Below are positions 3,788-62,393 of a stretch of DNA of 64,000 nt, in pieces (within the stretch, counting starts at the first letter, position 1; the number at the start of each line of letters is the position of its first letter). The notes beneath the pieces were generated by a model that saw nothing but the letters and a program-made list of their open reading frames with translations, was not told the origin of the DNA and searched no databases. The stretch lies in IMG/VR virus record IMGVR_UViG_3300033077_000655; one strand, given 5' to 3'. The position numbers were made by a program, and so were the translations under genes. The stretch comes from a virus. Its lineage: Duplodnaviria > Heunggongvirae > Uroviricota > Caudoviricetes.

Positions 3788-6454
3788 ATGAGTTACATTG
3801 ATGCACTATATGATCGAGCACACGATCGAATTCACGTTGTAGAACGCCGAGATGGCCGACGGGTATATCAAGAATATCCAGCCAACTATGTGCTTTACTA
3901 TGACGACCCACGTGGCAAGTTTCGTAGCATCTACGACACGCCTGTAAGTAGATTTTCCTCACGCAACAACAAAGAATTCCGCAAGGAAGTGCGTATGCAC
4001 TCCAGTAAGAAAATCTACGAAAGTGATATCAATCCTATTTTTCGTTGTTTAGAGGACAACTACAAAGGCCAAGACGGACCAAAGTTACACACAGCATTTT
4101 ATGACATTGAAGTTGACTTTGATCCAGAACGTGGATTCTCACCGGTAACTGATCCATTCAACCCAATCACCGCTATTTCAGTATACATGGATTGGTTGGA
4201 TCAGATTGTGACCTTGGCAGTACCACCGCGACACATGAGTATGGCAACTGCTAAAGAAATTGCCGCAGAGTTCGACAACTGCTTTATGTTTGAAAAAGAA
4301 GCAGACATGTTGAACACATTTCTAGACTTGATTGAAGATGCGGATATTCTCACTGGATGGAATAGTGAAGGCTATGACATTCCTTACACTGTGAATCGTA
4401 TCACCAGAGTGCTCAGCAAAGATGACACTAGACGTATGTGTTTGTGGAATCAGTATCCCAAGCCACGTATATTTGAACGATTTGGTGCAGAGAACCAAAC
4501 TTACGATTTGGTAGGACGAGTGCATATGGACTATATGCAATTGTATCGCAAATACACTTATGAAGAACGTCACAGCTATGCACTAGATGCCATTGGTGAA
4601 TACGAAGAAATTGGCCGAAAGACTGCATTTGAAGGCACACTGGATCAGCTGTACAACCAGAACTTCAAAATCTTTATTGATTACAACCGCCAAGATACAA
4701 TGCTGATTGGCAAGCTGGACAAGAAACTGAAATTTCTTAGCTTGGCCAATACACTGGCACATGAAAATACCGTGCTGCTGCAAACCACAATGGGTGCAGT
4801 GGCTGTGACTGAGCAAGCAATTATTATTGAAGCTCACGAACGTGGTATGGTAGTTCCTAACCGTAAAGAAAGACTCTCAGATGAAGACACGCAAGCCGCA
4901 GGTGCCTATGTTGCTTATCCCAAAAAAGGAATCCACGACTGGATTGGTAGTATCGACATCAACTCGCTCTATCCCAGTGCTATTCGGGCCCTTAACATGG
5001 GTCCAGAAACCATTGTCGGCCAACTCCGTCCCATAATGACTGACCGGCTGATTCGAGACAACATGACCAAGGGAGATAGCTTTGCTGCTGCTTGGGAAGG
5101 ATTGTTTGCCAGCCTAGAATACACAGCCGTGATGGAACAACAACGCGGTACAGAAATCACAATAGATTGGCAAGATGGCAATGAAACTGTGCATTCTGCT
5201 GCTGAAATATGGAAGATGCTGTTTGATTCAAATCAACCTTGGGTACTCAGTGCTAATGGAACCATATTCACCTATGAGAAAGAAGGTATCATTCCCGGCT
5301 TGCTCAAACGTTGGTATGCTGAACGTAAAGACATGCAGAAAAAAGCCAAGGAATACGAAGGCAAAGATGATGTGCAATTTGAATACTGGGACAAGCGACA
5401 ACTGGTCAAGAAGATTAATCTAAACAGTTTGTATGGTGCTATTCTCAATGCAGGTTGTAGATTCTTTGACAAACGTATTGGACAATCAACCACCTTGGTA
5501 GGTCGCAGCATTGCTAAACATATGGATGCATACGTGAACGAATGTATCACTGGTGAATACGATCACACAGGTAAAAGCATTATCTATGGTGATACTGATT
5601 CATGTTATTTCACAGCATGGCCCATGGTCAAAACTGAAGTCGAGGACGGCAGGATGGATTGGTCTGCAGAGACTTGTATTGCACTGTACAACTCCATTGC
5701 TGATCAAGTGAATGATAGTTTTCCAGGATTCATGGAACAGGCATTCCATTGTCCACGAGAAATGGGATCAGTTATCCGTGGCGGGCGAGAAATTGTAGCA
5801 CGTACCGGACTGTTTATTACCAAGAAACGATATGCTGTATTGTACATTGACAAAGAAAACAAACGTGTGGATGTGAATGGCAAGCCAGGCAAGGTCAAGG
5901 CCATGGGGCTTGATCTCAAAAGGTCAGACACGCCTGTGGTTATTCAAGAGTTCCTTAGCGATCTTCTAAATAAGGTTCTAACAGGAACACAGAGAGAAGA
6001 TATAGTGGCACGAGTCAGAGAGTTCAAATACGTATTCACAGAGCGACCAGGGTGGGAAAAGGGTAGTCCCAAACGTGTGAATAATTTAACCAAATATGGC
6101 AAAGAAGAACAACGACTGGGCAAAGCCAACATGCCTGGGCATGTTCGTGCTGCATTAAACTGGAACAATCTGCGACGAATGAATTCTGACAATTACTCAA
6201 TGCAAATTGTTGATGGTATGAAGACCATTGTGTGCAAACTCAAAAGCAATGCACTTGGGTGGACATCAATTGGTTATCCTACCGATGAACAACATTTACC
6301 ACAGTGGTTCAAAGACTTGCCATTTGATCATGTTGAGATGGAAGCCACTGTGGTAGATCAAAAGATTGATAATCTCTTGGGTGTGTTGGGATGGGACTTA
6401 AAGTCCAGCACCAACACAGCAAATACATTTACCAGCTTGTTCTCATTTGAATGA
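3788..6454 (+). CDS. DNA polymerase, family B (T4 gp43-like)
   Basis: Motifs DINSLYPS (motif A) and YGDTDS (motif C). 888 aa, with an exonuclease-like N-terminal half. Confidence 0.9.
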   Translation: MSYIDALYDRAHDRIHVVERRDGRRVYQEYPANYVLYYDDPRGKFRSIYDTPVSRFSSRNNKEFRKEVRMHSSKKIYESDINPIFRCLEDNYKGQDGPKLHTAFYDIEVDFDPERGFSPVTDPFNPITAISVYMDWLDQIVTLAVPPRHMSMATAKEIAAEFDNCFMFEKEADMLNTFLDLIEDADILTGWNSEGYDIPYTVNRITRVLSKDDTRRMCLWNQYPKPRIFERFGAENQTYDLVGRVHMDYMQLYRKYTYEERHSYALDAIGEYEEIGRKTAFEGTLDQLYNQNFKIFIDYNRQDTMLIGKLDKKLKFLSLANTLAHENTVLLQTTMGAVAVTEQAIIIEAHERGMVVPNRKERLSDEDTQAAGAYVAYPKKGIHDWIGSIDINSLYPSAIRALNMGPETIVGQLRPIMTDRLIRDNMTKGDSFAAAWEGLFASLEYTAVMEQQRGTEITIDWQDGNETVHSAAEIWKMLFDSNQPWVLSANGTIFTYEKEGIIPGLLKRWYAERKDMQKKAKEYEGKDDVQFEYWDKRQLVKKINLNSLYGAILNAGCRFFDKRIGQSTTLVGRSIAKHMDAYVNECITGEYDHTGKSIIYGDTDSCYFTAWPMVKTEVEDGRMDWSAETCIALYNSIADQVNDSFPGFMEQAFHCPREMGSVIRGGREIVARTGLFITKKRYAVLYIDKENKRVDVNGKPGKVKAMGLDLKRSDTPVVIQEFLSDLLNKVLTGTQREDIVARVREFKYVFTERPGWEKGSPKRVNNLTKYGKEEQRLGKANMPGHVRAALNWNNLRRMNSDNYSMQIVDGMKTIVCKLKSNALGWTSIGYPTDEQHLPQWFKDLPFDHVEMEATVVDQKIDNLLGVLGWDLKSSTNTANTFTSLFSFE

Positions 6455-27323: not shown

Positions 27324-28337
27324 ATGCGTAAGATGGCAACTATTCGACAAATTGATGCACTGAATCCTATTGAGGGTGCAGATGCTATTGAGTGCGCTAC
27401 CATTGGTGGATGGAAGGTAGTGGTAAAGAAGGGTGAGTTTGCGGTAGGCGACCGTGCAGTGTATTGCGAGATTGACTCTTGGATTCCCACCGAGATTGCA
27501 TCATTCCTAAGCAAGGGCAAGGAGCCTCGCGAGTTTGAAGGTATCCGCGGCGAACGTCTGCGTACTGTAAAGCTACGAGGCCAACTGAGCCAAGGTCTGC
27601 TGCTGAATCTTGATGATGTTATTCCACAAACCAATTCATTCGTCGAAGGTGATGATGTATCAGAACTGCTGAACATTGTGAAGTGGGAAATGCCCATGAA
27701 TGCACAACTAGCCGGAATGGCCAAGGGTAATTTTCCTTCTGAGATTCCCAAGACTGACCAAGAACGTGCGCAGAATCTTGTTGGAGAAATCCAGGCTGCT
27801 GCCGAAACAGGCACTGAGTTCGAAGTGACTGAAAAGCTAGAAGGCTCTTCAATGACTGTGTACTTGATTGATGGCGAGTTTGGTGTTTGCTCTCGCAACC
27901 TGGACCTTAAGGAAACTGAAGGCAATACATTTTGGCAAGTGGCACGGCGTGATGACATTGAGGCAAAGATGCGTTCAGTTGTTGGTACTGATTTTGCAAT
28001 TCAAGGCGAATTGATTGGCCCTGGAATTCAAGGCAATATCTACAAACTACGTGAACCAGAGTTCCGTGTGTTTGATATTTACAGCATTACTACAGGTGCT
28101 TATCTGTCTCCTCAAAAGCGCAGAGAACTAATTCGAAATCTTGGTCTACTCCATGTTCCTTTTATCTCTGTTGACAAAGACCTTGGTGTTGGCTCTATTG
28201 ACGAAATTCTTCAATGGGCAGAGGACATATCAATTTTAAATCCTACTGTACAGCGTGAAGGCATCGTGTTCAAGGAAGTGAATGGCGGCATGAGCTTCAA
28301 GGCAATCTCTAACAAGTACCTGCTGGGAGAAAAGTAA
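27324..28337 (+). CDS. ATP-dependent RNA ligase, second type (Rnl2/DraRnl-like)
   Basis: N-terminal OB-like IRQIDALNPIEGADAIECATIGGWKVVVKKGEF; nucleotidyltransferase motif I-like KLEGSS; 337 aa. Confidence 0.5.
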   Translation: MRKMATIRQIDALNPIEGADAIECATIGGWKVVVKKGEFAVGDRAVYCEIDSWIPTEIASFLSKGKEPREFEGIRGERLRTVKLRGQLSQGLLLNLDDVIPQTNSFVEGDDVSELLNIVKWEMPMNAQLAGMAKGNFPSEIPKTDQERAQNLVGEIQAAAETGTEFEVTEKLEGSSMTVYLIDGEFGVCSRNLDLKETEGNTFWQVARRDDIEAKMRSVVGTDFAIQGELIGPGIQGNIYKLREPEFRVFDIYSITTGAYLSPQKRRELIRNLGLLHVPFISVDKDLGVGSIDEILQWAEDISILNPTVQREGIVFKEVNGGMSFKAISNKYLLGEK

Positions 28338-41984: not shown

Positions 41985-42743
41985 ATGTCCGTATTCTTAG
42001 ACTCAGTGATAGAGTTCTACATCACCAATCAATGCAACCTAGCCTGCACCAACTGCAATAGGTTCAATGATCACGATTTCCGTGGTCACTACTATTGGGA
42101 GGATTCTGCACCTGCTGTCACAGCATGGAGTCAACGTATCAATGCATCAATGATAGTGATCATTGGCGGTGAACCCAGCTTGCATCCTGGGTTAGAAACT
42201 TGGGTGATGAATCTTCGCAGATTATGGCCGGACACCACAATCATGATTCAGAGTAATGGCACTAATGCAAAAATAGCAAAAGATCTCGACTCTTACAGCA
42301 AGTACCATGTGGGATGGGGTATAAGTGTACATCGTCCTGAGATGCGACCTGCATTAGAACGACAATGGGGCAACCTTATTGACAACACAGAATTTACCCC
42401 GGCTGCAATTATTCCGCAAGGTGATGCATTTGTTGTTCATCAGAGCAATCCGATAACTGCATTCAAAGCCTGCACCATGCGGCATAGTCACACTGTATTC
42501 AAAGGAAAACTGTACAAGTGTCCTGTGATGGCTGTGCTGCCAGAGTTCCGCACACAGCAATCAGTAATCATGGATACCAGGCAAGAACAGTTGTTGGCTC
42601 AGTATCAACCATTGAGTGCGGACTGTACTGAGCAACAGTTGACGGACTTTGTAGACACAAGAAATCAACCCATTGATCAATGTGAATTTTGCCCTGGTGA
42701 ATTTGATTTCCAGCCAGTGGTATTTCACAAAAGAAAAAAATAA
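41985..42743 (+). CDS. radical SAM protein (single Cx3Cx2C cluster)
   Basis: FYITNQCNLACTNCNRF...IIGGEPSLHPGL. Confidence 0.5.
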   Translation: MSVFLDSVIEFYITNQCNLACTNCNRFNDHDFRGHYYWEDSAPAVTAWSQRINASMIVIIGGEPSLHPGLETWVMNLRRLWPDTTIMIQSNGTNAKIAKDLDSYSKYHVGWGISVHRPEMRPALERQWGNLIDNTEFTPAAIIPQGDAFVVHQSNPITAFKACTMRHSHTVFKGKLYKCPVMAVLPEFRTQQSVIMDTRQEQLLAQYQPLSADCTEQQLTDFVDTRNQPIDQCEFCPGEFDFQPVVFHKRKK

Positions 42744-42930: not shown

Positions 42931-43090
42931 GGGCTTTACAAAACAAGTTGACCAGTATCGCACATGGTGTTATACTAGAGACTAGTTAGAAAGCAACAAG
43001 ATTTGCAAAGTCCTTCCAAGTTGTAGGGCTTTACAAAACAAGTTGACCAGTATCGCACATGGTGTTATACTAGAGACTAGTTAGAAAGCA
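42931..43090 (+). repeat. two copies of a 65-bp direct repeat, each carrying a TTGACC-N17-TATACT promoter
   Basis: Copy 1 at 42931-42995 and copy 2 at 43026-43090 are identical over 65 bp. Promoter hexamers at 42948-42953/42971-42976 and 43043-43048/43066-43071. Confidence 0.7.
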
Positions 43091-43658: not shown

Positions 43659-44060
43659 ATGAGTATATCGAATGAAAAGGGAGAAATAGGAGAAGCGGCA
43701 TTTGTGCTTGCTTCTGCTAAACAAGGATACTGGACTGGTAAAATGCCACAAGGGTGTCCTTATGATTATGTGTTAGATAGACATGATGGAAAACTTTTAA
43801 GAGTTCAAGTCAAATTTAGATCGTTAGAAAGTAACGGAGTAGTTACTATTAAGCTAACGCAAAACACATTCACAAACAGAGTTTCTTACAACAAAAGCAA
43901 CATTGATTATATAGCAGTTTATGTAAATGAATTAGATAAAGTATATCTTATACCTATTACAGAAATATGTGATGTGAAAGAAGTTAAACTTCGTTGTATA
44001 GAATCTATAAAAAGAAAAGATAATAACTCTCGTATAATAACAGAATACGCAGAGTGGTAA
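43659..44060 (+). CDS. small PD-(D/E)XK-like nuclease candidate
   Basis: GEIGE...PYDYVLD...LRVQVK resembles an E...PD...(E/Q)xK arrangement. Weak. Confidence 0.3.
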   Translation: MSISNEKGEIGEAAFVLASAKQGYWTGKMPQGCPYDYVLDRHDGKLLRVQVKFRSLESNGVVTIKLTQNTFTNRVSYNKSNIDYIAVYVNELDKVYLIPITEICDVKEVKLRCIESIKRKDNNSRIITEYAEW

Positions 44061-44315: not shown

Positions 44316-44326
44316 CCAAACAATAT

Positions 44327-44398
44327 GGGGGCAGCAGAGGGCTGCGGAGTTGCCTTGCAAGCATCTTGTCTAGAGGGGTTCGATACCCCCGGCCTCCA
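44327..44398 (+). tRNA. tRNA-Ala (TGC)
   Basis: G3·U70 wobble in the acceptor GGGGGCA/GGCCTCC; anticodon loop CTTGCAA; T loop TTCGATA. Confidence 0.65.
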
Positions 44399-44516
44399 CC
44401 AATTTTCGGAGACTGAAACTTGCTACTTGCATCCTCTTAGATCAGGGCAAAGGCAAGCGGATAAAGTGGACGGCACATGGGGCATGCCTGTGTGTAGGCT
44501 GTCTCCATCTTTTTAT

Positions 44517-44587: not shown

Positions 44588-44598
44588 CCAAGTTTAAT

Positions 44599-44777: not shown

Positions 44778-44850
44778 GCCGCGGTAGCTCATCAGGTAGA
44801 GCAGCAGACTGAAAATCTGTGTGTGGCTGGTTCGAGTCCAGCTCGTGGTA
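44778..44850 (+). tRNA. tRNA-Phe (GAA)
   Basis: D arm GCTC-ATCAGGTA-GAGC; anticodon arm GCAGA-CTGAAAA-TCTGT; T arm GCTGG-TTCGAGT-CCAGC. Confidence 0.7.
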
Positions 44851-45325
44851 CCAAGTTTATCCCTGCGTGGTGTACAAGTAGCACGACGCCGTATACACGT
44901 AAGCAGTAAGCGCAATTCTTACTCGCAGGGGCCAAGTTTATGTGTGAGAGCCGGATTAGTGACGGTGCCGATGTAGTTCGGTGAAAGGGTGAGCGAACCC
45001 ACCCCCACACACCAAGTTTTGCACCTGGCGTAATGGAAGCGTTACAGGTTAGTATCGAAAGATATACCCGAGAGGCGATGCGGGGGGTGCAGGGTTCGAT
45101 TCCCTGCGGTGCATTCAAGTTTTGTAAGTGTCAGCAAGAGAAAGACTCGCTGGGAAGATTCTTCGAAGGTCAACCCAGTGTAAAAGTAGATCCGGTTCAA
45201 ATCCGGCTAGGCTACGGAGCGTCTATGTCAGAGTATCCCAAGTGACGGACCACCTACCGTCCGGACTAGTGCATTCGGTTAAAAGGTTGCGATAACAGTG
45301 GCGCAACTACTTGCAAATTCAATCT

Positions 45326-45406
45326 GGAGATGTGGCAGAGTGGCCGATTGCGACAGACTGTAAATCTGTTCTTAACAGCGCGGTGGTTCGAATCCATCCG
45401 TCTCCA
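45326..45406 (+). tRNA. tRNA-Tyr (GTA), class II
   Basis: Acceptor GGAGATG/CGTCTCC; anticodon arm ACAGA-CTGTAAA-TCTGT; 12-nt variable region; T arm GGTGG-TTCGAAT-CCATC. Confidence 0.7.
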
Positions 45407-45595: not shown

Positions 45596-46245
45596 ATGAA
45601 AAAAGCATTGATATTAGGATGTAGTCATTCAGTAGGAGAGGAGATGAGTAAAGAACCAGGATTGGTTTTTAATGATTTGGCTCAGGCCACAGACTACGAG
45701 ATAACCCACTGTTATCCTGCACAAATTGCCCGAAAGCTGGGATATACCGCGTCAATCGAGGTATATCCGGAGGCAGTAACGATGCCATGTTTAGATTGTT
45801 TTTAAATGGGACATTAACACCCAACGACATAGTAATTGCTTGTTGGTCCGGAGTAGATCGAAGTGAAGTCTATGATAAAACATGGTTGCAATTATGCCCG
45901 GGTGCTCCAATACCAAAAGAAATTACTTCCGACTACTTTAAACAATGGTTGTTGTATTCAGCTAATACCGAAGTAGGTATGTTAAATAAAACAAAAAACA
46001 TACTAGCACTTAATGCATTGGCTCACGCACAAGGCATACGAGTCATAAACATAGATAGTTTTTGGCCTGTTAATTTTTGGCCTATAGTAAATTACGTCTG
46101 GCCCAACACAGTAAAATGGGCTGTGGACATTGATTTTATGTCGTGGTGCCAACGACACAACTTTCCTCATACAGAAAGAGTTCATTTTTTTAAACCAGCA
46201 CATGATTCGTTTGCCGAACATGTGCTAGAGAATATCGCGGAGTAG
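45596..46245 (+). pseudogene. SGNH-like hydrolase gene split by a frameshift in a T5 run (ORFs 45596-45805 and 45787-46245)
   Basis: ILGCSHSVGEE N-terminus parallels NGDSHTAGAE of the 22066 ORF. The two frames abut at gtttttaaa (about 45798-45803). Confidence 0.4.
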
Positions 46246-46768: not shown

Positions 46769-46927
46769 CCATATAAAAACATACTGTGAGGCGCTAGTTG
46801 CATGGCGAATTTAAACAGAATGCAACCCGTCATGTAATAAGTGTACATAAAGATGATGAGCAGTGTGTTTTTATATGGTAAAACAGGAGTAATTACCCTG
46901 CACCATAATCGGGAGTCATGACCCGAT

Positions 46928-47027
46928 GAACTCGTAGTGATGGAATGGTCAAACATAGGCCTCTTATCGGGCCGGTGGAGTTAAATGCCCACTTGCAGGT
47001 TTCGAAATCCTGCCTACAATGAGTTCG
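46928..47027 (+). ncRNA. 100-nt tRNA-like RNA of unclear identity
   Basis: GAACTCG...TGAGTTC-G-CCA acceptor-like pairing; T-arm-like GCAGG-TTTCGAAAT-CCTGC; internal hairpins; no canonical anticodon arm found. Confidence 0.35.
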
Positions 47028-47110
47028 CCATATAAAAACACATTTTTAACTAGGCATGCCCCTGCAAGGGTTTAACAGCAGTTTTGAGTGTGTTTCTATA
47101 TGGTTTTATG

Positions 47111-48688: not shown

Positions 48689-48692
48689 CCAG

Positions 48693-48767
48693 CTGGCGTT
48701 AGTATAATGGATAATACAGGGGATTTCTACTCCCTAAATGGCAGTTCGATTCCGGCCAGTTGCACCA
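48693..48767 (+). pseudogene. degenerate copy of tRNA-Arg (TCT): 5' two-thirds intact, 3' acceptor does not pair
   Basis: Identical to the 50320 tRNA through the anticodon arm (GGGGA-TTTCTAC-TCCCT), then diverges (AATGGCAGTTCGATTCCGGCCAGTTGCACCA). Confidence 0.5.
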
Positions 48768-48783
48768 CTCATAAATAAATTAC

Positions 48784-50310
48784 ATGTACAATGCTATACT
48801 TTTTACAGATCGAACCGACAACATATTTGGATCGGTCACTATTGGGGCATTTAAATGTGCTCATGTTTTAAGAAAACACGGATACTCGTGTTTGGTAGTC
48901 AATCATTATTCAGAATATACACATGAGGATCTGGTTGAACTTGTTGATTTAGCAGTGTCAGATCAAACTATCCTGATTGGGTTTAGTTCTACATATTTAA
49001 AAAATACTCAAATACAAAAACAAGTAGGAGAACCCACACCACCATATCCTGACATTGTTGATGACTCGGTATTCCCGCAAGGCAAAGATTTTGAAAATAA
49101 ATTTTTTGAATATTTGCATAAAACAAATAGCAAACTAAAAATCATAGTAGGTGGTACAAGGGTAACACAACAATATTCTAACAGGAATATTGACTATGCA
49201 TTTATTGGATATAGTGAAATATCTATAGTTAATCTAGCCAATCATCTGACCACCGGCGAACGCTTAGATAAAAGCAGTAAAAATATATACGGTGTGGTCA
49301 TCGTTGATGATCGATTTGCTCCTGCATATAATTTTAATAGTGAAGATATGAGTTGGGAAGCCACAGATATAGTGAATCATCACAGTCTTCCTATAGAAAT
49401 AGGTCGTGGATGTATTTTTAAATGCAAGTTTTGTGCCTTTCCGATGAATGGAAAACAAAATTTAGATTTTGTTAAAACTGCTGATATACTGGAAGCTGAG
49501 TTAAAAAACAACTACGATAGGTATGGTGTTCGACATTATCACATTGTGGATGATACCTTCAATGACCATATTGAAAAATTAGAATCTATACGTCGTGTGG
49601 TTGATCGTTTGAATTTTCAACCGGTATTTTGGGGGTATCACAGATTAGATCTACTGTGTACTAGACCAGAAACAGTAAAAATATTGCACGATATTGGTGT
49701 TAGATCAATGTATTTTGGCATTGAGACTTTGAATGAAAAAGCAGGAAAAATAATTGGTAAAGGATACAACAAATCACGTCAGATTGACATGATTCAAACC
49801 ATTCGCAATCAATATTCTGACATCTCAATGCACGGAAGTTTTATTCTAGGATTGCCCGAGGAGAGTATTGACAGCGTGTGGGAAACTCATAATAGTTTAA
49901 TAAGTCAACAGATTCCATTGCATAGTTGGATGTCAAATGGATTGCACATGTATAACAACGATAAATCTACATACGTCAGTGAGTTTGAAAAAAACTTTAC
50001 CAAATATGGGTATGTTGATATTGGCACTGATAATGAATCTAATTCAAGAAATTGGAAGAACAATTTTACTAACAGTGAAGAAGTCAGAGTATTGGCTGCA
50101 AAATTTACCAACGAATCTCGACGGTTACCAAATTTTATGCTGCCCGGGCATGATGCATTGGCTTTGTCAACATATGGCGTTGATTTTGATATATCACGAT
50201 TTACCCCATATCATCAATTTGATTTCCATGCTGTAGAGCACACTGTTAAACCAAATTTTGATAAAGAATATAAAAAACAATTGTTGAATCTTATTCAACA
50301 TTCTAAATAA
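48784..50310 (+). CDS. B12-binding-domain radical SAM protein (paralog 1)
   Basis: GRGCIFKCKFCAF (Cx3Cx2C); N-terminal Rossmann-like domain; paralog of 50508..52154. Confidence 0.7.
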   Translation: MYNAILFTDRTDNIFGSVTIGAFKCAHVLRKHGYSCLVVNHYSEYTHEDLVELVDLAVSDQTILIGFSSTYLKNTQIQKQVGEPTPPYPDIVDDSVFPQGKDFENKFFEYLHKTNSKLKIIVGGTRVTQQYSNRNIDYAFIGYSEISIVNLANHLTTGERLDKSSKNIYGVVIVDDRFAPAYNFNSEDMSWEATDIVNHHSLPIEIGRGCIFKCKFCAFPMNGKQNLDFVKTADILEAELKNNYDRYGVRHYHIVDDTFNDHIEKLESIRRVVDRLNFQPVFWGYHRLDLLCTRPETVKILHDIGVRSMYFGIETLNEKAGKIIGKGYNKSRQIDMIQTIRNQYSDISMHGSFILGLPEESIDSVWETHNSLISQQIPLHSWMSNGLHMYNNDKSTYVSEFEKNFTKYGYVDIGTDNESNSRNWKNNFTNSEEVRVLAAKFTNESRRLPNFMLPGHDALALSTYGVDFDISRFTPYHQFDFHAVEHTVKPNFDKEYKKQLLNLIQHSK

Positions 50311-50319
50311 CCCAAACAT

Positions 50320-50391
50320 CTGGCGTTAGTATAATGGATAATACAGGGGATTTCTACTCCCTAGATAGCAGTTCGATTCTGTTACGCCGGA
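50320..50391 (+). tRNA. tRNA-Arg (TCT)
   Basis: Acceptor CTGGCGT/ACGCCGG; D arm GTAT-AATGGAT-AATAC; anticodon arm GGGGA-TTTCTAC-TCCCT; T arm AGCAG-TTCGATT-CTGTT. Confidence 0.65.
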
Positions 50392-50507: not shown

Positions 50508-52154
50508 ATGTTTAATAATAAAAAACCTAATGTTATTTTAATTACAGATTCTACTGATATAATTTCTTTAAACATTCTACTTGGGCCATTTAAAGTAGCA
50601 CATGTTCTTAAAGAGCATGGAATAGAAGTTGCAATGATACATCATGCATCAGCATTGTCATTTAAAGAAATAACTACTATTCTCAAAGAGATAATATCTG
50701 ATCAAACTTTGTTGGTGGGTATAAACAATTTCTATTATTCTTCCATTGAACTTAATAAAGATAATGGCAGTGATGGCATGACATTAAAAGAAATTGACCC
50801 AGGTAGTTTTTTACCTCATGGAAAAAGCAAAAATATTGAGTTAAAAACACTGATTAAATCATTGAATCCCAAAACCAAAATAGTGCTTGGCGGTGTGACT
50901 GCATTAGATACCAAGTACAACAAAGATTTTGATTATCTTGTGTTAGGATACGCCGAAACTGCAATATTGGATCTGGTGGATCATCTTAGGTCATCGTCTC
51001 CTATAGAAAAAAGTTATAAAAGTATCTATGGGCCAATAGTGCTGACAGACAAGGTAGCGTCTAGATATGATTTTTCATCATCCCATATGCGGTATGATCC
51101 AGACTGGTCAATACTGCCTGGATCAACATTTCATCTAGAATTAGGTCGTGGATGCATTTTTAAATGTGCATTTTGCGCTTATCCTTTCAATGGAAAAAAG
51201 AAAACTGATTATATTAGATCAAAAGAATCTATTCAGGCTGAGATGATAGACAATTACAACAGATTTGGTGTCACACGTTATTTGATGGGTGACGATACGT
51301 TTAACGACAACGTTGATAAATGCCGAATGATTTATGAAATATCCCAAGAACTTCCATTTAAATTAGAGTACTGGGCGTATTTGAGATTAGACCTGCTGAC
51401 GGCACATCCTGAAACAATAGATTATTTGTTTGACAGCGGCTTAAAAGCGGCGTTTTTTGGTATTGAAACTCTGAACCCCAAGACTGCATCTATAATAGGC
51501 AAAGGTGGCAATCGAGATAAAATGTTTAAAACTATAGCTGATATTAAATCTAAGTGGGGTGATTTAGTTTCGTTAGCCGCTGGGTTTATTTATGGATTAC
51601 CCGAAGAAGATTTAGATAGCCTACAACGCACAACTGATTTTTTGATCAGTGACCAAAACAAACTAGATCAGTGGCTAGTTGAAGCTTTAAACATACGCCC
51701 TACCGTTGATTATGATAATAGCTTTATCAGCGATATAGAAAAAAATTATGAAAAATATGGTTATAGTAAAATAGACAACCACACTCGTCCAGGTGGGTCC
51801 AATATAGGCACTGATCGCCGACGACATGCTATAGTCTGGAAGAATAAACACACAGACTATTACTCTGTTTTAAACATTACCGAAGCACTGAATGCTAGAA
51901 TAAAACCACACTTGAAAATTCCCGGCGATGCGGCTCTCCTGTTGAGTGGGCTAGGCATAGATTTAGACCAACTATTAAACAAACAACATGACCAAGTGCC
52001 GTGGAATAAACTAGATCAACTACATTTAAAAAAAGTTTTTGAGTATAAAAAACTCTTAGCTAAGAATTTAAATTTTGATATTAATCTCATTGACATGAAA
52101 ATTTTGCATCACAAAACGTACGGTAATTATCTCAAAGCAATGTTTGAAAAATAA
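50508..52154 (+). CDS. B12-binding-domain radical SAM protein (paralog 2)
   Basis: GRGCIFKCAFCAY; domain order as in 48784..50310. Confidence 0.7.
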   Translation: MFNNKKPNVILITDSTDIISLNILLGPFKVAHVLKEHGIEVAMIHHASALSFKEITTILKEIISDQTLLVGINNFYYSSIELNKDNGSDGMTLKEIDPGSFLPHGKSKNIELKTLIKSLNPKTKIVLGGVTALDTKYNKDFDYLVLGYAETAILDLVDHLRSSSPIEKSYKSIYGPIVLTDKVASRYDFSSSHMRYDPDWSILPGSTFHLELGRGCIFKCAFCAYPFNGKKKTDYIRSKESIQAEMIDNYNRFGVTRYLMGDDTFNDNVDKCRMIYEISQELPFKLEYWAYLRLDLLTAHPETIDYLFDSGLKAAFFGIETLNPKTASIIGKGGNRDKMFKTIADIKSKWGDLVSLAAGFIYGLPEEDLDSLQRTTDFLISDQNKLDQWLVEALNIRPTVDYDNSFISDIEKNYEKYGYSKIDNHTRPGGSNIGTDRRRHAIVWKNKHTDYYSVLNITEALNARIKPHLKIPGDAALLLSGLGIDLDQLLNKQHDQVPWNKLDQLHLKKVFEYKKLLAKNLNFDINLIDMKILHHKTYGNYLKAMFEK

Positions 52155-54171: not shown

Positions 54172-54260
54172 GGAGAGTAATGCAGCGGGGATGGTCCTGC
54201 GACTGGCCTTGAAAACCAGGTTCTCAGAAATGGGATGGGGTTCGACTCCTCTGCTCTCCG
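54172..54260 (+). tRNA. tRNA-Ser (TGA), class II
   Basis: Acceptor GGAGAGT/GCTCTCC; D stem GCAG/CTGC; anticodon loop CTTGAAA; long variable arm; T loop TTCGACT. Confidence 0.7.
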
Positions 54261-61988: not shown

Positions 61989-62085
61989 ACTTCCTATCTA
62001 TGGTGTGTGTTCAGATTATATAGAAACTATATTGTCTAAATAAATATATGAATAGTCGTAATCCCTTCAAAACAAAGGAATCCAA

Positions 62086-62366
62086 GACTCGGGGGCAGTG
62101 CCCGAATGGTCCACCAGAAGCATAATCGATTGGCTCAGAGCCAGTTGAGACATAAGAAACATGATTGTGCTTTTGATGGGCCATACACAGGATCGATTGG
62201 GTTAGATAGTGGCGACGGCGACTCGGTAGGCGATGACCGTTAATCAAGCGAAACCTATAAATGCCAACGACAGCGTTTATTCCTTAGCTGCCTAAACTCA
62301 GCTTAGGGTAGTTATACCTCGTAACAGAAAATAACAGAAGCCCGCTTCGGCGGGCTTTCTTTTGAC
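62086..62366 (+). ncRNA. ssrA: candidate tmRNA (ssrA)-like RNA with tag reading frame ANDSVYSLAA-stop; architecture unresolved
   Basis: Sits in a 380-bp non-coding gap. GCC AAC GAC AGC GTT TAT TCC TTA GCT GCC TAA at 62263-62295, preceded by CTATAAAT. Upstream ...GGTCCACCA at 62112-62120. Ends in a strong terminator. Confidence 0.5.
62338..62364 (+). terminator. intrinsic terminator
   Basis: AAGCCCGC-TTCG-GCGGGCTT followed by TCTTTTG. Confidence 0.8.
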
Positions 62367-62393
62367 TGTTATTTTTGATCACTATATACTAGC

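Follow-up and report, generated by a model that had tools for sequence, protein, structure and literature searches.

Three tRNA-shaped RNA elements without an anticodon arm in the tRNA array of an uncultivated jumbo phage

What kind of gene has the outline and the ends of a transfer RNA (tRNA) and lacks the arm with which a tRNA reads a codon? The question is raised by three adjacent elements, here called E1, E2 and E3, in the tRNA array of the IMG/VR record IMGVR_UViG_3300033077_000655, a tailed phage of which a 64,000-nt stretch was analysed (the window, a 64-kb part of a large phage genome). The earlier note on this DNA had described a run of three tRNA-like, non-canonical units and had left open whether these were tRNA pseudogenes from duplications or tRNA-derived or other small RNAs. 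Such a run is present on the + strand, where E1, E2 and E3 lie head to tail, co-oriented with the array and flanked by tRNAs on both sides, and the analysis supports the second of the two options. E1–E3 are probably three separate genes for small, stable, non-decoding tRNA-shaped RNAs, which would be processed like tRNAs and bind a partner. E1 and E2 recur in other phage contigs, their base pairs covary, and they are missed by the models of tRNA and of the Rfam families. Related contigs and loci are referred to by L-numbers (L001 etc.).

The three units lie approximately where the earlier note had placed them, with boundaries that required correction: E1 is a 74-nt tRNA-shaped RNA gene at 44861..44934 (+ strand; delimited by sequence, homologues and covariance model), E2 a 73-nt cloverleaf RNA gene at 44942..45014 (+; sequence and covariation) and E3 a 95–98-nt class-II-tRNA-like RNA gene at 45020..45117 (+; sequence and minimum-free-energy fold), the start given for E3, 45033, having been ∼13 nt too late. 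E1 and E2 finish in N-CCA, and E3 finishes in UCA and has no CCA. The missing canonical anticodon arm is borne out by tRNA detection, as neither default ARAGORN, which gives 36 tRNAs in the window, nor Rfam calls any of the three, and the relaxed mode of ARAGORN yields no standard tRNA at their positions. In relaxed mode, E3 is reported as "tRNA-?(tatc)", its anticodon stem being broken and its loop 8 nt long, E1 is called solely at the 60% threshold and read as tat, and E2 receives no call, relaxed settings included. An Rfam cmscan of the 14-kb array at E ≤ 10 matches E1–E3 to no tRNA or other family, and a scan with lax filters of the 481 nt at 44850-45330 alone returns no match to RF00005 or any other family. 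Rfam matches within E1–E3 are limited to 17-nt T-arm fragments of E3, and transfer-messenger RNA (tmRNA) models applied to the three units similarly find just a 17-nt T-arm fragment at 11 bits. When compared with a canonical tRNA, none of the three has a 5-bp anticodon stem with a 7-nt loop containing U33, an anticodon and a purine at position 37; the elbow (T loop UUCRANY with G18-G19 in the D loop) is found in E3 alone and is lacking in E1 and E2; and E1 possesses the complete set of 7-bp acceptor, discriminator and CCA. No counterparts of E1–E3 were found in 50,697 deposited phage genomes, and a literature search found no description of such elements. Single-sequence folds give four-way junctions with z = -1.2 (E1), -2.3 (E2) and -2.2 (E3), and predicted folding energy by itself is weak evidence for the units, which stand above chance because of their conservation and covariation in other contigs and not because of thermodynamics. 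Covariance models part the members of these families from ordinary tRNAs by >50 bits.

E1 has the acceptor CCCUGCG/CGCAGGG at 44861-44867/44924-44930, followed by G73 at 44931 and CCA at 44932-44934, a D-like arm at 44870-44884 whose loop ACAAGUA contains no GG, and a T-like arm at 44905-44923 with a 6-bp stem and the loop CGCAAUU. Homologues from IMG/VR and one metagenome scan give six distinct sequences in different neighbourhoods, where the unit upstream may be tRNA-Phe, tRNA-Pro, a unit of the E2c type described below or something else. Among these six sequences, mean column identity is 96%, loops included, and 100% of cloverleaf cells are paired; variation is limited to ∼9 columns, six of which make up three compensatory pairs. 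E1 is near-invariant, whereas X4, the adjacent structured RNA that follows E3, is only 68–84% identical among relatives. The covariance model R1 scores 105–110 bits on E1 copies, and the description of E1 as a conserved structured RNA with a hairpin head is well supported. E1 and E2-type units occur together in three arrangements (the window, L004/L152/L154, and L150), a pattern in the sequences that hints at a shared role.

The head of E1 (44886..44900, + strand; defined by an alignment of heads) replaces the anticodon arm and consists of the 3-bp stem ACG/CGU at 44886-44888/44898-44900 and the 9-nt loop CC-GUAUAC-A at 44889-44897, within which positions 44891-44896 form a self-complementary hexamer. 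This hexamer is GUAUAC in four E1 sequences, GCAUGC in L005 and GCGCGC in L150, a perfect palindrome each time. One of the three compensatory pairs of E1 is a head-stem pair that changes from G-C to A-U in L005, and the remaining two lie inside the 9-nt loop, where two of the three hexamer pairs covary. The covariation of hexamer positions 3 and 4 is not explained by a hairpin within the loop and fits an antiparallel duplex of two copies. The head is also found on other bodies; for example, a unit in L089, which scores 45 bits with R1, has no ARAGORN call and has a body with canonical D and T loops, carries the E1 loop CCGUAUACA on a GGU/ACC stem, and a third body, found in L052 by motif scan, carries the E1 loop on a GGG/CCC stem. 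All three head-bearing bodies start with C-C, end with G-G and have the discriminator G and CCA. Comparison of the three scaffolds supports the 3-bp head stem, and in the head alignment five of six pairs covary and 100% of cells are paired, a score reached by none of 500 shuffles. Computed loop–loop duplex energies are -7.0, -11.0 and -13.9 kcal/mol. It is tentatively proposed, with slightly less than even confidence, that E1 pairs head to head with a second copy through a kissing loop. No second copy of each palindrome was found at a conserved nearby position where it could act as the pairing partner. Loose criteria for palindromic loops in a tRNA-like context produced 893 matches, mostly spurious, and a stricter scan gave nothing beyond the known E1 family. 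The window itself contains, at 46880-47031, a unit with two palindromic 9-nt loops of the same 2+6+1 layout as that of E1, in the hairpins cAGG[AG-UAAUUA-C]CCUg and AUCGGG[AG-UCAUGA-C]CCGAU, followed by a tRNA-like 3′ domain ending in GCCA; this unit is conserved in L005, L007 and L129.

E2 has the acceptor GUGUG(AG)/(CC)CACAC at 44942-44946(48)/45006(04)-45010, with 5 bp and an A.C mismatch (7 bp if the mismatch is counted), followed by A at 45011 and CCA at 45012-45014. The D arm at 44950-44966 has a 9-nt loop, GAUUAGUGA, without GG; the "anticodon" arm at 44967-44982 combines a stem of 5 bp with a 6-nt loop, UGUAGU (44972-44977); and the T arm at 44987-45004 has an 8-nt loop, AGCGAACC. Eight distinct sequences were obtained by pattern searches in IMG/VR and GTDB genomes with subsequent inspection: four 73-nt forms (the window, L022/L025, L082/L158 and L159), two with an enlarged "anticodon" arm (L156 and L155) and a 92-nt subtype (L146/L157/L160 and L161). 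A ninth copy, in L168 (CAISPN010000008.1), lies on a 3-kb contig that is binned into a cyanobacterial metagenome-assembled genome. In the three closest copies, pairing is 100% and all substitutions outside the loop are compensatory; the D, anticodon and T stems each contain one such pair. In the eight sequences, double compensatory changes are seen in 7 of 20 pairs, distributed over all four stems, and pairing extends to 89% of cells; this covariation score is reached by 0/500 shuffles, and sliding the partners drops pairing to 28–56%. RNAalifold recovers the same cloverleaf from the alignment only. The model R3 scores 82–101 bits on E2 members, ordinary tRNAs remaining <27, and gives 40 bits for a distant "E2c" subtype (L004, L152, L154 and L150). 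The acceptor, the D arm with its 9-nt loop, the GAAA/GAUA linker and the T arm with GCGA in its 8-nt loop are conserved, and the part that varies is the "anticodon" arm, which carries the 6-nt loops UGUAGU, UGUAUG, UGUAUU or UAAAUU or inserts of 20–30 nt; this pattern is the reverse of that of a decoding tRNA. The loop UGUA was considered as a sign that E2 is a decoy of tRNA-Tyr or of a queuine enzyme, and this idea was dropped, as relatives have UAAAUU or long inserts. Matches to the 18-mer of the E2 T arm are mostly terminator hairpins, and 12 of the 13 matches on genome contigs are due to chance.

E3 has a 6-bp acceptor, UGCACC(U)/(C)GGUGCA, at 45020-45025/45108-45113 with a U7.C mismatch, and the tail U-UCA at 45114-45117 replaces N-CCA. 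Both the D arm (45028-45042, with a 3-bp stem and the loop UAAUGGAAG) and the T arm (45090-45106, CAGGG-UUCGAUU-CCCUG) are canonical. Between them lie a central bulged hairpin at 45047-45068, GGU-UA-GUAUC-GAAA-GAUAU-ACC, with its GAAA cap at 45057-45060, and a long variable region at 45069-45089; an alternative fold places a short GUAUC/GAUAU hairpin beside an ACCC/GGGU variable arm. In the predicted fold, E3 looks like a class-II tRNA body in which the anticodon arm has been swapped for a GAAA-capped hairpin and from which CCA is missing. It recurs at 99% identity in L001, L002 and L003, where the order differs (Glu-E3-Tyr-Asp-Leu), and the sole difference among copies is the discriminator, U versus A. 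The flanking tRNA-Glu, tRNA-Tyr and tRNA-Leu are 78–83% identical between the E3-bearing contigs. The model R2 gives 127 bits on the four E3 copies, followed by ordinary tRNAs at 25–29 bits, and a search for intermediate relatives with two sequence anchors in IMG/VR and the covariance model returns just the three near-identical copies. A related design is seen in the L040-type family (L040 522-616, L046 and L162-L166), whose seven members are tRNA-like, have no CCA and carry in place of the anticodon loop an invariant 35-nt insert, AAGUCCGAGACACGNAAGUGGAGUAGGCANNCAAAUG (starting AAGUCCGAGACACGNAAGUGGAGUAGGCA), which forms a GNRA hairpin between GAGA/GAGUA internal-loop strands; their acceptor, D and T stems covary around the insert. 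Membership of E3 in this family was considered and rejected, as the inserts align unconvincingly and R2 scores the L040-type no better than ordinary tRNAs. E3 and the L040-type have D and T arms, the missing CCA and a GNRA hairpin in common, a likeness of design only.

The surroundings of the three units are consistent with common transcription and tRNA-like processing. The nearest sigma-70-like promoter upstream, TTGACC-17-TATACT with TG, lies at 43043..43071 (+) and a twin at 42948-42976 (+), both being consensus matches only, with 10 of 12 positions fitting the sigma-70 consensus at each site. Downstream, the + strand is free of terminator-like sites up to 46331, and E1–E3 are accordingly placed inside one likely transcription unit. 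No promoter or terminator was found between E1–E3 and their neighbours, the units lying 5–7 nt apart, and their transcript probably starts at the site at 43043-43071. The spacers on the + strand are AGUUUAU between the CCA of tRNA-Phe and E1 (44854..44860), AGUUUAU between E1 and E2 (44935..44941) and AGUUU between E2 and E3 (45015..45019), and E3 ends in UCA-AGUUUU. The 5–7-nt spacers bear the common signal CCAAGUUU, and CCAAGTT occurs at 44588, 44851, 44932 and 45012, shared with the upstream tRNA-Gly and tRNA-Phe. The RNase E consensus is "RN|WUU" (PMC5222698). The spacer CCA-AG|UUU fits this core motif, so that cleavage would be expected at these spacers, and a U stands directly 5′ of the first base of E1.

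From these features, a course of maturation can be proposed for E1–E3 as separate, non-decoding RNAs. E1–E3 would be co-transcribed with the phage tRNAs, excised by RNase P and RNase E with the help of exonucleases, and stabilised in the manner of tRNAs. E1–E3 retain what the enzymes of tRNA maturation recognise, namely the acceptor stacked on the T arm, the U at -1 (an RNase P preference), the AG|UUU spacer and, at the 3′ end, the encoded N-CCA of E1 and E2 and the A/U-rich tail of E3. The anticodon arm of each unit would then have been replaced by a module unable to present an anticodon. In E1, this module would be the 3-bp stem and 9-nt loop with its covarying palindrome, acting as a dimer; in E2, the 5-bp stem that bears a 6-nt loop of variable sequence, or in relatives a longer insert, the D and T loops of the scaffold being conserved although non-canonical; and in E3, the GAAA-capped bulged hairpin and long variable arm on a canonical class-II body. 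As tRNA mimics or tRNA-scaffolded modules, the products might have a protein or an RNA as binding partner, such as a factor in a conflict over tRNAs, a context suggested by the RNA ligase, the tmRNA and the 36 tRNAs of the window, which mark a phage that invests much in its tRNA supply and in RNA repair.

Several points weigh against this account. All relatives of E1–E3 come from uncultivated contigs, and the alignments are small (six distinct sequences for E1 and eight for E2) and related by descent, so that the shuffle tests overstate significance. The encoded CCA is inconstant in the E1 family, where GCCA, GCCCA and CCCUA are all seen, and the single-sequence minimum-free-energy fold of E1 is not the cloverleaf (-22.7 versus -18.9 kcal/mol). 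The four copies of E3 are 99–100% identical and consequently offer no covariation, the fold of E3 being a prediction only; in addition, the tRNA-Asp is itself 100% identical between the E3-bearing contigs, and the identity of E3 may be explained by strong constraint or, less favourably, by recent exchange. With respect to the dimer, RNAalifold favours the pairing of the hexamer with GUGUAC at 44870-44875 in the D-arm region, a helix with which three of the four variable hexamer columns are compatible through wobble pairs; the fourth column breaks (A.C) in both variant sequences, and the helix has no compensatory support. The hexamer changes are also all transitions, and under a transitions-only model, the probability of palindromy by chance is ∼0.07 (∼1-in-15). 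Finally, the step that makes E1–E3 mimics or decoys is conjecture.

The rival explanation that survives best, though improbable, regards the units as inert processing punctuation, that is, handles that guide RNase P and RNase E cuts and release neighbours such as X4. X4 is a structured RNA of ∼195–200 nt directly 3′ of E3 (45122..45316, region to 45325, + strand) with the closing stem UUGUAAGUG/CUACUUGCAA at 45122-45130/45307-45316, where relatives have compensatory changes, a T-arm-like hairpin in its interior, UCCGGUUCAAAUCCGG, and the conserved stretch UUCUUCGAAGG. It is found in >100 IMG/VR loci at 68–84% identity, always right behind a tRNA-like unit ending in CCAAGUUUU, and has no match in Rfam or in deposited phages; it is a member of the same non-tRNA run, yet belongs to a separate and far more widespread family. 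The position of the run directly 5′ of X4 and the fact that tRNA-like ends are the best-kept tRNA features of the units are what a punctuation role would predict. However, an ordinary tRNA precedes X4 in most of the ∼100 related loci, which makes a special unit unnecessary, and E1, E2 and E3 are also found away from X4. The loops and head of E1 are near-invariant, and the head occurs on three scaffolds, a constraint that exceeds what punctuation needs.

Decay of tRNA copies that arose by duplication within the array, one of the two options of the earlier note, is quite unlikely for the run as a whole. The units do lie within a tRNA array, and E3, with its canonical D and T loops and no covariation, resembles a class-II tRNA with a damaged anticodon arm. 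A true decayed duplicate is also present in the window at 48692-48756, a truncated 97% copy of tRNA-Arg(tct) at 50320-50379; this remnant covers only positions 8–63 of the tRNA model, and the tRNA model still detects it. A duplication origin of E1–E3 does not survive global alignment with all 36 array tRNAs, in which the best identity is 0.64–0.67, compared with an all-pairs median of 0.61 and a median best non-self match of 0.71 among the array tRNAs themselves; E1–E3 resemble the array tRNAs no more than unrelated tRNAs resemble one another and are therefore not recent duplicates. E1 and E2 are conserved over independent contigs with different neighbours, with compensatory changes in every stem and little else changed, and E3 is 99% identical where neighbouring tRNAs have diverged by 17–22%. 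Decay would not preserve CCA, spacers and loops. The pseudogene option is consequently rejected in the case of E1 and E2, and for E3 it is unlikely.

To a similarly small degree, the units could be functional tRNAs that decode in an unorthodox manner, for example, as frameshift, quadruplet or stop suppressors whose anticodon loops have 6, 8 or 9 nt. E1 and E2 have a discriminator and CCA besides an acceptor stem, ARAGORN in relaxed mode reads a 4-base "anticodon" (tatc) in E3 and tat in E1, and odd tRNAs do exist in these arrays, for example, that of L025 2096-2188 with a CUA anticodon. However, E1 has an arm of just 3 bp, and the variation of its loop is that of a palindrome and not that of an anticodon; the 6-nt loop of E2 is swapped for 20–30-nt inserts in close relatives; both lack the GG and UUC loops required for the tRNA elbow; and the loop of E3 is a closed GAAA hairpin. 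The long open reading frames (ORFs) of the window read normally in code 11. Least credible of all is a feature of the DNA or of protein coding (a protein-binding, restriction or recombination site, or micro-ORFs), for which the palindromic DNA hexamers GTATAC, GCATGC and GCGCGC and a 14-codon ATG...TGA frame in E2 that is open in all variants can be cited, as a change from GTATAC to GCGCGC that keeps symmetry alone is unexpected of a sequence-specific site, other variation tracks the RNA stems, ORFs that span the region on either strand cannot be conserved when E1, E2 and E3 occur separately elsewhere, and the E2 micro-ORF is rejected because its "ATG" is the shared spacer AU plus G1, it has no ribosome-binding site, its codon changes are mostly non-synonymous and a 14-codon frame is open by chance about half the time.

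The reading of E1–E3 as genes for processed, non-decoding RNAs is set within an array that contains further unusual elements. The family-B DNA polymerase of the window (3788-6454) has jumbo phages as its nearest relatives, at 42–49% amino-acid identity (Sinorhizobium phage Phosso, Agrobacterium phage Atu_ph07 and the Yersinia, Erwinia and Pectobacterium giants), and the phage is a jumbo phage known from metagenomes alone. A PD-(D/E)XK endonuclease is encoded within the array (43659-44060), together with three radical-SAM enzymes, two of which have B12-binding domains (41985-42743, 48784-50310 and 50508-52154); an RNA ligase with an OB fold (27324-28337) lies 15 kb upstream, and the enzymes of the window, among them this ligase and several radical-SAM/B12 enzymes, also include GTP cyclohydrolase I. 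The 36 tRNA genes called by ARAGORN are all on the + strand, most of them between 42.7 and 55.4 kb. The tmRNA identified by ARAGORN lies at 62024-62386, and its tag is ANDSVYSLAA, that of L022 being ANDELFALAA. Both tags resemble proteobacterial tmRNA tags and suggest a proteobacterial host, in contrast to the other hint at the host, the cyanobacterial bin of the E2 copy in L168. Downstream of tRNA-Thr, the ORFs 45596-45805 and 45787-46245 overlap in different frames and may represent a frameshifted or split gene; the former starts like the ORF behind the L025 array (M..LGCS..).

Other structured RNAs occur in the same array. A tRNA-Ala(UGC)-like gene at 44325-44403 is called in the relaxed mode of ARAGORN only and has many homologues at 77–92% identity, and at 44404-44516, it is followed by a 113-nt conserved RNA, GGAGACUGAAACUU...AAGCGGAUAAAGUGGACG...GUCUCC, with no default ARAGORN call and with homologues in L070, L087, L122, L129 and L146. 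A tRNA-Sec-like element at 54172-54259, without an ARAGORN call, scores 34.9 bits with the Rfam tRNA-Sec model (gathering score 47) and is 94–100% identical in L005, L007, L022 and L025. At 46770-46880 and 47030-47108, cassettes bounded by the inverted repeats AUAUAAAAACAC...GUGUUUYUAUAUGG form long hairpins right behind a tRNA CCA, and such cassettes are common across related arrays. In L025, the 93-nt unit at 2096-2188 (the same as in L022 and L168) lies between an E2 copy and X4; ARAGORN calls it tRNA-Pyl(cta), and its CUA anticodon, long variable arm and GCCCA end suggest a possible amber-suppressor-like tRNA.

A more far-reaching and rather doubtful view is that E1 is a natural dimerising tRNA-shaped RNA, with its head on at least three tRNA-like bodies, and possibly one of a hidden repertoire that includes E2, E3, X4, the L040-type and the unit at 46.88-47.03 kb. 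If this were true, the "tRNA arrays" of the clade would be mixed operons that make structured effector RNAs through the tRNA maturation machinery, perhaps as decoys or assemblies directed against tRNA-targeting or tRNA-handling factors of the host. The annotation of phage tRNA arrays generally relies on tRNA finders and passes over the gaps, and here the gaps carry conserved structured RNA families. If E1–E3 are made and processed as predicted, tRNA scaffolding would gain new natural examples, a compact and testable RNA dimerisation module would be available in E1, and the 50-year-old puzzle of phage T4 RNA C and RNA D would be an instance of a wider phenomenon. E1–E3 can further be regarded as candidate RNA-based counter-defence elements in the conflict of phages with bacteria over tRNAs.

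Among known systems, T4 RNA C and RNA D (species 1 and 2 RNAs; rnaC and rnaD) are small RNAs of the T4 tRNA cluster with unknown roles (PMC3014915). As with E1–E3, they are co-oriented and lie few bases apart, and rnaC shares a tRNA-like T arm and an acceptor-like end with E1–E3. The Gly-Pro-Ser tRNA order of T4 is also present in the window just upstream of E1–E3, and the PD-(D/E)XK endonuclease of the array is comparable to SegB of the T4 tRNA cluster. However, T4 RNA C and RNA D are 119–139 nt in length and are not cloverleaves, whereas E1–E3 are four-way junctions of 73–98 nt. When rnaC and rnaD were searched for with nhmmer in the window and in every related locus, only the queries themselves were matched, and homology is rejected on this basis. 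By analogy, T4 RNA C and RNA D are the closest precedent, a likeness in kind and not membership.

In the dimerisation initiation site (DIS) of human immunodeficiency virus type 1 (HIV-1), a self-complementary core of 6 nt sits in a 9-nt loop together with two flanking bases and a single A on its 3′ side (PMC2099213). The head of E1 has the same layout, with two 5′ flanking bases, a hexamer and a conserved 3′ A, and its palindrome is kept as the sequence varies. The E1-head variant ACGCGCGCA is one base off AAGCGCGCA, the loop of HIV-1 subtype B. E1 differs from the DIS in its 3-bp stem, its 5′ flanks, which are mostly pyrimidines, and its location at the anticodon position of a tRNA-shaped RNA, and the likeness is one of analogy and not homology.

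Tailored tRNA shapes without decoding are also known from eukaryotic systems, where the vtRNAs/TMERs of murid gammaherpesvirus 68 and mascRNA are tRNA-shaped, are processed by tRNA enzymes, are given CCA and do not decode. These are products of RNA polymerase III or nuclear RNAs, and in part they release linked microRNAs or the MALAT1 3′ end. The mascRNA model matches just the 17-nt T arm of E3 at 15 bits, with no sequence relation to E1–E3. Similarly, YrlA and Y RNA-like RNAs, the partners of Ro/Rsr, are non-coding and mimic tRNA D and T arms, and unlike them, E1–E3 have no long Ro-binding stem. Some jumbo phages encode a Ro/TROVE protein, the partner of a tRNA-like RNA (PMC7824862). The YrlA model (RF02553) gives no match on E1–E3 or X4 and weak sub-threshold matches on ordinary tRNAs, and no TROVE domain was found among the scanned ORFs of the window, 64 kb of the genome. 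In engineered "tRNA scaffold" RNAs, cargo takes the place of the anticodon arm and gains processing and stability in the laboratory; E3 and the L040-type have this design, a tRNA body with a structured insert at the anticodon stem-loop, here in a natural form. The covarying palindromic loop at the anticodon position appears to be the new feature of the run, and the E1–E3 families are additions to a known broad kind, that of tRNA-like small RNAs in viral tRNA clusters.

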